Assembly: GCF_003334335.1 (NCBI RefSeq)
Contig: NZ_QOWQ01000136.1
Source: Escherichia coli
Lineage (GTDB): Bacteria > Pseudomonadota > Gammaproteobacteria > Enterobacterales > Enterobacteriaceae
Direction: 5' to 3' (one strand)
DNA length: 952 nt
Positions 1-952 of this stretch are shown one piece after another (the stretch's first letter is position 1; the number at the start of each line of letters is the position of its first letter). The notes under the pieces were generated by a model, which was not told the DNA's origin, made no database searches, and was given only the letters and a program-made list of their open reading frames with translations. The position numbers and the translations under genes were made by a program.

Positions 1-102
1 GTTGAGGTCATGAAAATTGCTGGAGATGCCCAGCTTTCTACCCCATGCACTGACAGCATCATAAACAGCATTGCAACGGGCATTCGCATCAAAGGAGAGT
101 GA
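1..102 (+). CDS. 3' end of an upstream ORF (5' truncated by the window edge); hypothetical protein, C-terminal 33 aa ...VEVMKIAGDAQLSTPCTDSIINSIATGIRIKGE*
   Basis: Frame 1 is open from base 1 to the TGA at 100..102. The stop lies 1 nt before the ATG at 104, a stop/start arrangement typical of translationally coupled phage genes. No similarity recognised from memory; a 33-codon open stretch alone is weak evidence. Confidence 0.4.
   Translation, partial: VEVMKIAGDAQLSTPCTDSIINSIATGIRIKGE
93..97 (+). promoter_or_regulatory. Shine-Dalgarno ribosome-binding site (AGGAG) for the ATG at 104
   Basis: AGGAG at 93..97 followed by a 6-nt spacer and ATG at 104..106; near-consensus SD at optimal spacing. 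It sits inside the last codons of the upstream ORF. Confidence 0.65.
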
Positions 103-103
103 G

Positions 104-295
104 ATGAACGGACAAATCTCAATTGTTCGACCGGGAGCATGTGACGATCGCGAGATACGAATGATTATTCGTCTGGCGATGGGGAGAACAATAACAGCTC
201 TCATTACTCCAGAAAATCTCGCATTAGCTTTAACCGGAAAGTCAGAACTGCCAGTGGAGCTAAAACTGCGAAATGTTGAGATTAAGGTGAAATAG
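104..295 (+). CDS. Small hypothetical protein, 63 aa (MNGQISIVRPGACDDREIRMIIRLAMGRTITALITPENLALALTGKSELPVELKLRNVEIKVK); function unknown
   Basis: ATG at 104 with an AGGAG SD 6 nt upstream; open to TAG at 293..295. The ORF track starts this frame at TTG 71, the first start-like codon after the in-frame TAA at 62..64, but that start has no SD and would overlap the upstream ORF by about 30 nt. Same strand and 2-nt gap to the downstream gene. No family recognised from memory. Confidence 0.65.
   Translation: MNGQISIVRPGACDDREIRMIIRLAMGRTITALITPENLALALTGKSELPVELKLRNVEIKVK
284..289 (+). promoter_or_regulatory. Shine-Dalgarno ribosome-binding site (AAGGTG) for the ATG at 298
   Basis: AAGGTG at 284..289 followed by an 8-nt spacer and ATG at 298..300; it lies within the last codons of the small ORF, consistent with translational coupling. 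Confidence 0.6.
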
Positions 296-297
296 CT

Positions 298-952
298 ATG
301 ACCACTATTACCAAAGAACGTATTGAATTGTTCATTAAAAATCCGCTTGAAAACGGGCTTACTCGTGGCGAACAAATGGAACTGGCACGAATTGCACTGG
401 CATCACTGGAACGCGAACAGATTCGCCACGAGCATGCCAAATGGTCTGACTCCACATTTGGCTGCGTTGGCCCCATTGGTCCACTGAAACACCTCTCAAA
501 AGAGGCACTGGAAGCCGCAGCCGAACCAGACGATCTTAGCGAGTGGGCTGATATGCAGTTTCTGTTGTGGGATGCACAGCGCCGTGCTGGCATCAGCGAT
601 GCTGAAATTACCGCTGCTATGGAAGATAAATTGAAGATCAACATGGAGCGCCAGTGGCCTGAGCCAAAAGATGGTGAGCCTCGCTTGCACATTAAAGAAC
701 CCGGCAACTCTCCGGTAATTCCGGATGGTTTATCCACGGTATGCGCTGAGGCTTATCAGGTTGTAGGAGTTATGGCAGATGCGCTTGGTGTATTCGGTGA
801 TGCAGCAGTACAGAAAGTTCTGGATAACCTGTCACAGCAAAAACTTGTTCACAGAGATGTGCTGCCGTTCTCGCTTCCGGTAACTCCGGATGGTTGGATA
901 AGCTGTAGTGAGCGAATGCCGGATGATGGTCAGCACGTAATTATTTTATGTG
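298..952 (+). CDS. MazG-like all-alpha nucleotide pyrophosphohydrolase (DUF550-like, putative dATP/dGTP pyrophosphohydrolase) fused to a C-terminal DUF551-like module; 3' partial, 218 codons visible, no stop in window
   Basis: Frame 1 is open from ATG 298 to the window end, checked codon by codon with no stop. Translation begins MTTITKERIELFIKNPLENGLTRGEQMELARIALASLEREQIRHEHAKWSDSTFGCVGPIGPLKHLSKEALEAAAEPDDLSEWADMQFLLWDAQRRAGISDAEITAAMEDKLKINMERQWPEPKDGEPRLHIKEPGNSPVIPDG... It contains E-A-L-E (aa 69-72, nt 502..513) and E-W-A-D (aa 82-85, nt 541..552), matching the ExxE...ExxD divalent-metal-binding signature of the MazG/HisE-type NTP pyrophosphatase superfamily. The C-terminal ...PDGWISCSERMPDDGQHVIILC resembles, from memory, the start of DUF551 modules found in enterobacterial prophage proteins. 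Domain assignment is from recollection of family patterns, not a database search. Confidence 0.85.
   Translation, partial: MTTITKERIELFIKNPLENGLTRGEQMELARIALASLEREQIRHEHAKWSDSTFGCVGPIGPLKHLSKEALEAAAEPDDLSEWADMQFLLWDAQRRAGISDAEITAAMEDKLKINMERQWPEPKDGEPRLHIKEPGNSPVIPDGLSTVCAEAYQVVGVMADALGVFGDAAVQKVLDNLSQQKLVHRDVLPFSLPVTPDGWISCSERMPDDGQHVIILC
711..730 (+). repeat. Direct repeat copy 1 (tccggtaattccggatggtt); encodes S-P-V-I-P-D-G-L in the CDS frame
   Basis: Read directly from the sequence: 19 of 20 nt identical to 876..895, in the same reading frame, 165 nt apart start to start. It contains an imperfect palindrome TCCGG-N5-CCGGA. Confidence 0.85.
876..895 (+). repeat. Direct repeat copy 2 (tccggtaactccggatggtt); encodes L-P-V-T-P-D-G-W in the CDS frame
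   Basis: Read directly from the sequence: 19 of 20 nt identical to 711..730 (single T/C difference at repeat position 9). It is immediately followed by the DUF551-like WISCSERMPDDG segment. Confidence 0.85.

Follow-up and report, generated by a model that had tools for sequence, protein, structure and literature searches.

A small HkaF-family gene as an optional cassette between Ea22-like and EaA-like genes of lambdoid and P22-like prophages

Introduction

Is the 63-aa protein encoded immediately upstream of a MazG-like dATP/dGTP pyrophosphohydrolase gene a dedicated partner of that enzyme, or does the close packing of the two genes have another origin? The preliminary description of this locus took the packing as a sign of coexpression, possibly at a fixed stoichiometry, and suggested that the small protein regulates, inhibits or otherwise accompanies the enzyme, with an independent role in host takeover or superinfection exclusion as the alternative. 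We compared the protein, its two junctions and its neighbors with those of relatives in E. coli genomes, phages and metagenomes. The small protein is a soluble, basic, beta-rich phage protein of the HkaF family; on balance, it is probably the product of an autonomous early cassette and not a dedicated partner of the pyrophosphohydrolase.

Results

Layout of the window

The window, that is, the whole stretch of 952 nt that was analyzed, contains three reading frames, all on the + strand. Megablast comparison with phage and E. coli collections identified it as an Ea22-like/small ORF/EaA-like stretch of lambdoid and P22-like prophages, and the position matching its upstream gene is annotated as ead/Ea22-like in locus L001 and in phage HK620. 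Its features are as follows.

1..102, + strand: 3' end of an ead/Ea22-like gene whose 5' part lies beyond the left edge; its product ends in ...IATGIRIKGE, with TGA at 100-102
92..97, + strand: Shine-Dalgarno (SD) sequence AAGGAG of the small ORF, within the K-G-E codons of the upstream gene
104..295, + strand: HkaF-family small ORF, 63 aa, 7.0 kDa, pI 9.6, no transmembrane segment
285..290, + strand: SD sequence AGGTGA of the downstream gene, within small-ORF codons 61-63 (K-V-K)
298..411, + strand: N-terminal module (aa 1-38) of the downstream mosaic EaA-like gene, delimited by megablast breakpoints
421..708, + strand: dATP/dGTP pyrophosphohydrolase domain (PF04447, formerly DUF550), aa 42-137, Pfam E = 6.2e-42
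892..948, + strand: start of the DUF551 domain (PF04448), aa 199-217, Pfam E = 3.6e-06 for a domain truncated by the window

The downstream ORF opens at ATG 298 and leaves the window at its right edge; in the identical locus L008, the full DUF551 domain is matched by Pfam with an E value of 2.9e-20. The complete downstream protein has 266 aa in L008 and 277 aa in L001. Megablast matches that cover the small ORF typically extend from about position 79 to about position 411 and break thereafter. In the PGAP annotation, the downstream mosaic ORF appears as two pieces, a fragment marked "partial" and a CDS with its start placed at a CTG (window 397-399); contrary to this split, the ORF is continuous from ATG 298.

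Translation signals and conservation of the junctions

The small ORF starts at ATG 104-106 and is preceded by AAAGGAGAG at 91-99, the core of which, AAGGAG (92-97), stands at a spacing of 6 nt. The ORF stops at TAG 293-295, the dinucleotide CT follows, and the next gene starts at ATG 298, with AGGTGA (285-290) placed 7 nt ahead of it in the last codons of the small ORF. The near-ideal SD and ATG, the 2-nt distance between stop and start, and the position of the downstream SD had thus all been described correctly. The 5' side of the small ORF is equally tight: the TGA of the Ea22-like gene (100-102) lies 1 nt before ATG 104, so that the K-G-E codons at the end of the upstream gene double as the SD of the small ORF. 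As far as the nucleotide sequence can indicate, the spacing and the SD inside the ORF are compatible with coexpression with the next gene and with re-initiation at its start.

Both junctions are found well beyond the window. In the best 80 of 225 relatives in IMG/VR (at least 94% identity), "TAG nn ATG" is retained at 76 loci and the gap is 1 nt at 3; ATTAAGGTGAAATAGnnATG is conserved at 76 of the 80, the full junction being ATTAAGGTGAAATAG-nn-ATG. On the upstream side, a long ORF ends 1 nt before the small ORF at 79 of 87 loci, 78 of these ORFs end in KGE, and the junction ATCAAAGGAGAGTGA(g/t)ATG is identical at 76 of the 87. The end of lambda ea22 carries the same junction as a relic, ATCAAAGGAGAGTGAGATc, in which ATC replaces ATG and no ORF follows; the largest co-directional ORF between ea22 and ea8.5 of lambda has just 21 codons.

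Neither a sigma-70-like promoter site nor an Rfam match was found within the window. RNA folding at the two junctions was no better than that of shuffled controls (z = 0.18 and -0.44), which means that the geometry permits re-initiation and that there is no sign of downstream initiation depending on coupling.

Evidence for a conserved gene

Judged by its pattern of variation, the small ORF is a genuine gene on which purifying selection acts. A scan of IMG/VR with a degenerate pattern gathered 225 relatives, and in the best 80 of these the ORF is intact and has exactly 63 codons at every locus. Variable sites among 35 distinct DNA versions are distributed 32/14/55 over the three codon positions, and the mean dN/dS relative to the window is 0.14. 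Of 5426 complete E. coli genomes, 722 (about 13%) have the ORF, 715 of these at a coverage of at least 80%; it occupies 806 places in all, and the E. coli copies are consistently annotated as a CDS. The copy of EHEC O157:H7 Sakai is ECs_1517 of prophage Sp6, and many Stx phages have the gene as well.

Proteins of the same length were recovered from Escherichia, Salmonella, Enterobacter, Citrobacter, Cronobacter, Lelliottia and Tatumella in a protein search that yielded 84 clusters. In an exhaustive profile search, the number of cluster representatives was 77, of which 40 had E values of 1e-10 or below, and the family spans the Enterobacterales and beyond.

Family assignment and rejected homologies

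Residues 1-63 of the small protein align with all 63 profile positions of PHROG 1222 (E = 2.8e-40), a family in the category "unknown function," and the protein is 92% identical to HkaF of phage HK620 (NP_112039). It has the HkaF core motif TPE(N/D)(L/F)ALALTG(K/R)S(D/E)(L/V)P and all the family-invariant residues, S6, I7, R9, P10, R19, G27, R56 and N57, and its gene lies between Ea22-like and EaA-like genes as in HK620, which is the early-operon position expected of the family. At the DNA level, the small ORF shows 100% identity with the E. coli G1/2 gene that encodes WP_016232623.1 ("hypothetical protein"), a copy that sits between recombination/accessory genes and xis-int. The sequence in the window is thus not new, being identical to existing RefSeq entries, and the family itself has been on record since the HK620 genome and is listed in PHROGs/pVOGs, in each case with no function assigned. 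The earlier statement that no family could be recognized holds for function and not for sequence, since PHROG 1222 and HK620 HkaF are clear matches. Likewise, the remote-homology search that had been suggested returned no function-bearing family but did match PHROG 1222 full length.

Scans of the 63-aa protein against Pfam (even at E values up to 10), NCBIfam and PADLOC gave nothing, and no PADLOC family reached an E value of 1 for either the small or the downstream protein. Sequence and profile searches of the PDB gave just insignificant local matches (a GerQ fragment and a ubiquitin hairpin), and the C-terminal extensions of longer relatives matched neither Pfam nor PHROG. A literature search found nothing on the function of the HkaF family, and the accessory-gene screen of Silas et al. 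does not mention it.

Several candidate homologies were considered and rejected. An AbrB/MazE/SpoVT domain was suggested by the pattern "ITPENLALALTGKSELPVELKLRNVEIKV"; hhalign of a 117-sequence family alignment against AbrB, Abh, SpoVT, MazE and 7d2n, with templates verified against the PDB, gave a probability of 0.2% and an E value of 0.26, and there was no Pfam match. A ubiquitin-like beta-grasp was limited to a 21-residue beta-hairpin-plus-helix-cap motif (IRxxIRLxxGKTITxxxTPE), with E values of about 0.2 to 1 for mono-ubiquitin; the lower E values with ubiquitin result from summing over polyubiquitin repeats. Hits of the exhaustive profile search to the large repeat proteins P0113, P0114, P0135 and P0143 were judged to be spurious sums over a short beta-hairpin motif. 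Read by eye, these four contain Listeria-Bacteroides-type and RCC1-type repeats. A match to phrog_11564, "DNA methyltransferase," was attributed to chimeras such as P0104, which joins a methyltransferase N terminus to the C-terminal 38 residues of HkaF, and gives no functional clue.

Predicted structure and properties of the protein

AlphaFold2 (AF2) modeling from a 23-sequence alignment, a check that had been proposed for the protein, predicted a confident soluble beta-sheet domain (pLDDT 82.7, pTM 0.62) with strands at residues 4-8, 18-23, 29-34 and 52-56 and a helix at 36-43. The protein has no hydrophobic span (Kyte-Doolittle 19-residue maximum 1.05, GRAVY 0.13), and a membrane-type exclusion protein is therefore unlikely; together with the soluble AF2 model, the lack of a transmembrane segment speaks against a membrane superinfection exclusion protein. 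In the alignment of close relatives, R9, R19 and R56 are invariant and R23 is nearly so, and some relatives carry Zn-ribbon extensions (P0089, P0116, P0120 and P0102).

Foldseek against AFDB50 retrieved only uncharacterized members of the same family, followed by TOBE/Mop/OB-type folds at E values of 0.2 and above. A linker-joined homodimer model reached a pTM of 0.68 and had longer strands, and two of the five dimer models were poor (pLDDT 47 and 44). The modeled dimer shows an extended antiparallel sheet with flanking helices, similar to that of Whirly/PC4-type dimers (PBF-2, 1l3a; StWhy2, 3n1h; MRP1/2, 2gia; SsgB, 3cm1; PC4, 1pcf). Residues 9-53 of HkaF align locally with residues 9-62 of PC4 at a noise-level score that generic beta-barrels equal; hhalign against PC4 plus MoSub1 reproduces the alignment made by eye and is not significant (P = 0.081, probability 0.7%), and Pfam gave no PC4 match. 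The order of elements also differs, being b-b-b-a-b-b in HkaF versus the b-b-b-b-a topology of PC4. The likeness to PC4 and Whirly proteins is a lead and not a sign of membership.

Genomic contexts of the family

All the contexts of HkaF-family genes that we examined, in temperate and lytic phages, are early replication, recombination or accessory modules. The HK620 genes hkaG (Ea22-like), hkaF (63 aa) and hkaE (DUF551) lie in the pL early-left operon, after sak4/ssb/abc2. That locus has the same 63-aa product, the same slot (between hkaG and hkaE) and the same 1-nt and 2-nt junctions as the window, from which it differs only in the downstream neighbor: hkaE combines the N-module of the window with DUF551 and has no DUF550. 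In prophage Sp6 of Sakai, the small gene follows the replication protein gene on the pR/nin side, and an Ea22-like ORF ends 1 nt upstream of it. A 98-nt gap follows the small gene in a Tatumella prophage. For metagenomic relatives, the locations are a pL accessory stretch with a Rad52-type recombinase gene on one side and int on the other, a nin region, where the gene precedes NinB, and the vicinity of AAA_24/DEAD helicase genes.

Further contexts are those of Dhillonvirus (DNA polymerase, HkaF homolog, VRR-NUC nuclease, helicase, with a 4-nt overlap), the Braunvirinae phage SU57, whose homolog heads a terminator-bounded operon with a RecE-like exonuclease (ExoVIII), a recombinase and SSB, Avunavirus (Av-05 and 24-2-1), with an EaA-like gene 2 nt downstream of the homolog, and Erwinia phage 49, with the order DnaB, HkaF homolog, Lar/NinX/NinB. 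The lytic-phage homologs (Dhillonvirus "rolling_13," Braunvirinae SU57_00046 and Avunavirus Av05_00124) have the same domain and small size at 35-79% identity, sit in early DNA metabolism clusters, and overlap or abut the next gene with their start or stop. Unlike the window, the Dhillonvirus and Braunvirinae loci have no adjacent Ea22-like, DUF550 or DUF551 gene.

The early accessory proteins of lambdoid phages, such as Gam, Abc2, Ral/Lar, Ea8.5 and Orf60a/61/63 of the exo-xis region, are small, apparently nonessential, mosaic in distribution and transcribed from pL or pR. Their genes are tightly packed, with SDs lying within upstream genes, and some of the products modulate host nucleases or the lysis-lysogeny decision. 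These genes are also treated in PMC7093339 and PMC10834534. No kinship in sequence or fold between HkaF and any of these proteins was detected, and the likeness is positional only.

The downstream gene and the cassette slot

The proteins encoded downstream of the small ORF are themselves mosaics, ranging from 66 to 401 aa across the 80 IMG/VR loci. They have at least five alternative N-modules, all starting with MTTIT or MNTLT and most ending in a linker of the ...ALASL(E/A)AEP type; variable middle modules follow, of which DUF550 is one, and most of the proteins terminate in DUF551. Among the 53 distinct complete downstream proteins found beside close relatives (at least 94% identity), Pfam detected DUF551 in 45 (85%) and PF04447 (DUF550) in 8.

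The downstream gene also occurs without the small ORF. Pieces of the window, mostly of the EaA-like gene, were matched at 6321 places in 2900 genomes versus 806 places for the small ORF. In strain HCM-22C-2 (locus L099), the slot is empty and the stop of the Ea22-like gene stands directly before the same DUF550 gene (AAAGGAGAGTGAtATGAGCACTATCACTAAAGAACGT), which has the same N-terminal module as in the window; the contiguous empty-slot junction was found in 29 genomes. In strain SCU-101 (locus L100), the slot before the same DUF550 gene holds a 65-aa Zn-ribbon ORF with two CxxC pairs, unrelated to HkaF and found in 85 genomes. In lambdoid and P22-like prophages, hkaF is thus a cassette that may or may not be present, and its slot is fixed: an Ea22-like gene lies on one side and, on the other, a mosaic EaA-like gene made up of an N-module, an optional DUF550 and DUF551. 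The alternatives to hkaF in the slot are the Zn-ribbon ORF or nothing, between identical flanks, and the stop-SD-start junctions on its two sides are standard boundaries of the mosaic region.

These observations bear directly on the proposed partnership. The consistent neighborhood with a DUF550 gene across prophages that such a partnership led one to look for was not found, because DUF550 is present in only 8 of the 53 downstream proteins and the enzyme gene also occurs without the small ORF. With the slot empty or swapped in some genomes and with other neighbors elsewhere, a specific stoichiometric, regulatory or inhibitory relation to the MazG-like DUF550 enzyme is not supported. Coexpression remains compatible with the spacing and the in-ORF SD. 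The alternative that had been offered, an independent accessory or host-directed factor, fits the cassette slot and the varied neighbors better. On these observations, the pairing of the small ORF with the pyrophosphohydrolase would be an accident of this particular mosaic, and the tight coupling would belong to the boundaries of the slot and not to the gene pair.

Discussion

The function of the small ORF has to be considered apart from that of the enzyme encoded next to it in the window. It is likely that HkaF represents an autonomous accessory early-gene cassette that is not tied to DUF550. A long early transcript, from pL in HK620 and on the pR/nin side in Sakai Sp6, would carry every cassette, and the junctions would let each one be translated by re-initiation or by local initiation; HkaF would be made early from its own strong SD and possibly by re-initiation as well. 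As conserved DNA, the junctions may in addition serve as joints for the exchange of cassettes. With the junctions acting as boundaries of both translation and exchange, the coupling to the pyrophosphohydrolase would be a by-product of operon architecture. The tight translational coupling of this region would then be a generic property of cassette-slot junctions, and it gives no evidence for a two-protein system. The preliminary description correctly portrayed an ordinary, uncharacterized phage gene and overinterpreted the packing of its operon.

The protein may act alone, perhaps as a homodimer in which the beta-sheet continues from one subunit into the other, a suggestion made with low confidence. 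With similarly low confidence, its most likely role would be that of a binder in the early DNA replication and recombination program of the phage, the candidate targets being single-stranded or branched DNA or a host protein of DNA metabolism, a nuclease or a replisome component. A target within DNA replication or recombination is a tentative proposal and on present evidence rather doubtful. The basic charge, the arginines R9, R19, R23 and R56, the Zn-ribbon extensions of some relatives and the place as first gene of a RecE/RecT/SSB operon are hints in this direction, and guilt by association carries little weight here because early accessory regions are common to many unrelated phage genes. 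A more specific version, which we regard as improbable, holds that HkaF is a new mini-domain that dimerizes into a Whirly/PC4-like sheet and binds either a host nuclease or DNA that is single-stranded or branched, and that lytic enterobacterial and temperate lambdoid phages alike use it as an accessory factor in recombination or against nucleases; if true, this would explain why HkaF heads the RecE/RecT/SSB operon of Rtp-like phages.

Four other explanations were weighed against that of an autonomous cassette. By analogy with Gam, Abc2, Ral and Lar, the small protein might serve in anti-defense or host takeover by inhibiting an immunity protein or nuclease of the host, an unlikely reading as it stands, although it is a close variant of the idea of a target in DNA metabolism. 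It would suit an optional, mobile, small early gene of temperate and lytic phages that has abc2 close by in HK620 and a Lar-like gene close by in Erwinia phage 49, and that heads the RecE/RecT/SSB operon of SU57, the place of Gam-type inhibitors in lambda. The HK620 annotation of hkaF as "similar to ORF in enterohemolysin-2 clone" (Ehly2) points the same way; phage-borne ehly determinants cause the release of ClyA and are not hemolysins themselves, according to the title of Oscarsson et al. 2002 as cited in PMC7093339. However, the phenotype is one of the Ehly2 clone as a whole, the family is not mentioned in the accessory-gene screen that we searched (Silas et al.), and no match was found among annotated families or in PADLOC, which is a library of defense and not of anti-defense systems. 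That the ORF is not functional as a protein, being a conserved spacer or recombination linker that was left open, is scarcely credible. The flanking junctions are indeed conserved as DNA and behave like recombination boundaries, but this explanation would leave unaccounted for a dN/dS of 0.14 with variation mostly at third codon positions, a protein conserved to 35-45% identity in distant phages whose DNA is unrelated, the confident AF2 fold and the 63-aa length kept across genera.

The remaining two explanations tie the small protein to one of its neighbors. A looser functional tie of this kind, for which DUF551 downstream (85%) and an Ea22-like gene upstream (about 96%, 77 of 80 IMG/VR loci) might speak, is of low probability. 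As to the downstream side, the small protein could be a partner or regulator of the EaA-like family in general, acting via the N-module or DUF551, with the coupling setting the ratio of the two proteins, which we consider quite unlikely. The presence of DUF551 in 45 of the 53 distinct downstream proteins and the TAG-nn-ATG junction retained at 76 of 80 loci would agree with it, as would the Avunavirus EaA-like gene 2 nt downstream, a Tatumella-type contig in which a DUF551 gene follows after a gap of 98 nt, and one natural fusion, P0090, of an HkaF domain with an EaA-like middle module. Yet P0090 is a singleton, synteny inside one recombining phage group is not independent evidence, and the small ORF is missing from most EaA-like loci (806 versus 6321 places). 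Moreover, the same downstream gene occurs with an empty slot or an alternative cassette, and Dhillonvirus, Braunvirinae, Erwinia phage 49 and several metagenomic loci have no DUF551 neighbor. On the upstream side, Ea22-like proteins are pro-lysogenic, coiled-coil proteins. That the small protein works with them, perhaps as a detachable C-terminal module, is very unlikely, despite the Ea22-like ORF that ends 1 nt upstream at 79 of 87 loci and also in Sakai Sp6, and despite the in-frame Ea22::HkaF fusions P0085-P0088. Ea22 C-terminal domains are known to be exchangeable modules (PMC10834534), which would favor the same reading. The fusions are nevertheless rare, with one to three members each, and like the HkaF::EaA-like fusion they are attributable to a 1-nt indel beside the junction; many Ea22-bearing phages, lambda among them, do not have the small gene, and the lytic-phage homologs of Dhillonvirus and Braunvirinae have no annotated Ea22-like gene immediately upstream.

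For the autonomous cassette, the three states of the slot (HkaF, Zn-ribbon ORF or empty), together with the conserved SD-containing junctions, provide a natural experiment on the roles of such cassettes, and the presence of HkaF beside recombination and replication genes in lytic phages offers a concrete, testable hypothesis. A role in DNA metabolism or against nucleases, if true, would annotate hundreds of prophage genes and leave current concepts unchanged.

One minor observation concerns the upstream neighbor. The "+GE" C-terminal tripeptide of Ea22 proteins is described as unexplained in PMC7093339. In the arrangement described here, this tripeptide coincides with the SD of the next cassette (AAA GGA GAG TGA n ATG).

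Junction and slot between the Ea22-like and EaA-like genes

Ea22 proteins have a conserved C-terminal '+GE' tripeptide, the significance of which was given as unknown (PMC7093339). We found that the codons AAA GGA GAG, which specify this tripeptide, are at the same time the Shine-Dalgarno sequence of the next gene (window 91-106), and the junction ATCAAAGGAGAGTGAgATG is the same in 71 of the 87 loci. At the 3' end of lambda ea22 (about 545-560 of the lambda locus, minus strand), ATCAAAGGAGAGTGAGATc persists as a relic of this junction that lacks a start codon, and the stretch from there to ea8.5 contains no co-directional ORF of appreciable length.

What lies between the stop codon of the Ea22-like gene and the start of the EaA-like gene is polymorphic, with three states. 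This slot is filled by hkaF in 722 genomes and, in 85 genomes, by an unrelated ORF of 65 aa whose product contains two CxxC pairs (MDKNTTAYWNLSLDTECPKCGH...CPECNH...) (L100, strain SCU-101: 1604-1801), and it is empty, leaving a contiguous junction, in 29 genomes (L099, strain HCM-22C-2: 1590-1610).

The block of Ea22-like, HkaF, and EaA-like genes is also found beyond the pL arm. In Sakai Sp6 (ECs_1516-1518) it lies downstream of a replication gene, on the pR/nin side, and it is also carried by E. coli plasmids of ~95 kb (H34-H37), which may be phage-plasmids.

Mosaic structure of the EaA-like gene

The EaA-like gene is a domain mosaic (window 298-411 and the downstream genes of L008-L087, the loci with close hkaF relatives). 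Its N-terminal modules are of at least five mutually unrelated kinds, every one of which begins with MTTIT/MNTLT, and most of them are closed by an ALASL(E/A)AEP-like linker. The middle modules are interchangeable, DUF550 being present in 8 of the 53 downstream proteins, and most of the proteins (45/53) end in DUF551. That the first five codons are common to the N-terminal modules suggests that the recombination joint reaches just beyond the start codon.

In E. coli G1/2 (L001), the continuous 277-aa downstream ORF is presented by RefSeq/PGAP as two features; in the window, a further open frame lies on the opposite strand:

L001:6218-6343 (window about 298-423), 'partial' pseudogene fragment, RefSeq/PGAP
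L001:6317-7051 (window 397 onward), pyrophosphohydrolase CDS, RefSeq/PGAP
Window 282-737, minus strand, GTG-initiated ORF of 151 codons, antisense to the DUF550 gene

The start assigned to the pyrophosphohydrolase CDS falls on an in-frame CTG codon (window 397-399), and the split appears to be an artefact of annotation that arises from the mosaic N-terminal module. Nothing supports a coding role for the minus-strand ORF; in all likelihood it is an open frame on the antisense strand, without significance.

Chimeric and extended relatives of HkaF

Chimeric proteins with only half of the HkaF domain exist (P0104, P0080, P0078, and P0071). Examples join either a truncated methyltransferase or DUF2737 N-terminus to the C-terminal ~38-40 residues of HkaF, or the N-terminal 43 residues of HkaF to a NinX-like C-terminus, with joints near '..MGKTIT..' and '..ALALTG'. 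We attribute the match of the small protein to phrog_11564 ('DNA methyltransferase') to the existence of these chimeras. In distant relatives, the HkaF domain is the N-terminal part of proteins of 130-210 aa (P0131, P0138, P0148, and P0152; P0103, P0105, and P0110), the unannotated C-terminal extensions of which are of at least two recurring types with no Pfam or PHROG match. Other relatives (P0089, P0116, P0120, and P0102) carry Zn-ribbon extensions.

Residues 18-38 of the HkaF protein of the window show a local, 21-residue likeness to the ubiquitin beta1-beta2 hairpin and helix cap, which produces misleadingly low E-values against polyubiquitin. We think that the same resemblance also lies behind the low E-values in the profile search against large repeat proteins, classed by eye as Listeria-Bacteroides-type and RCC1-type.
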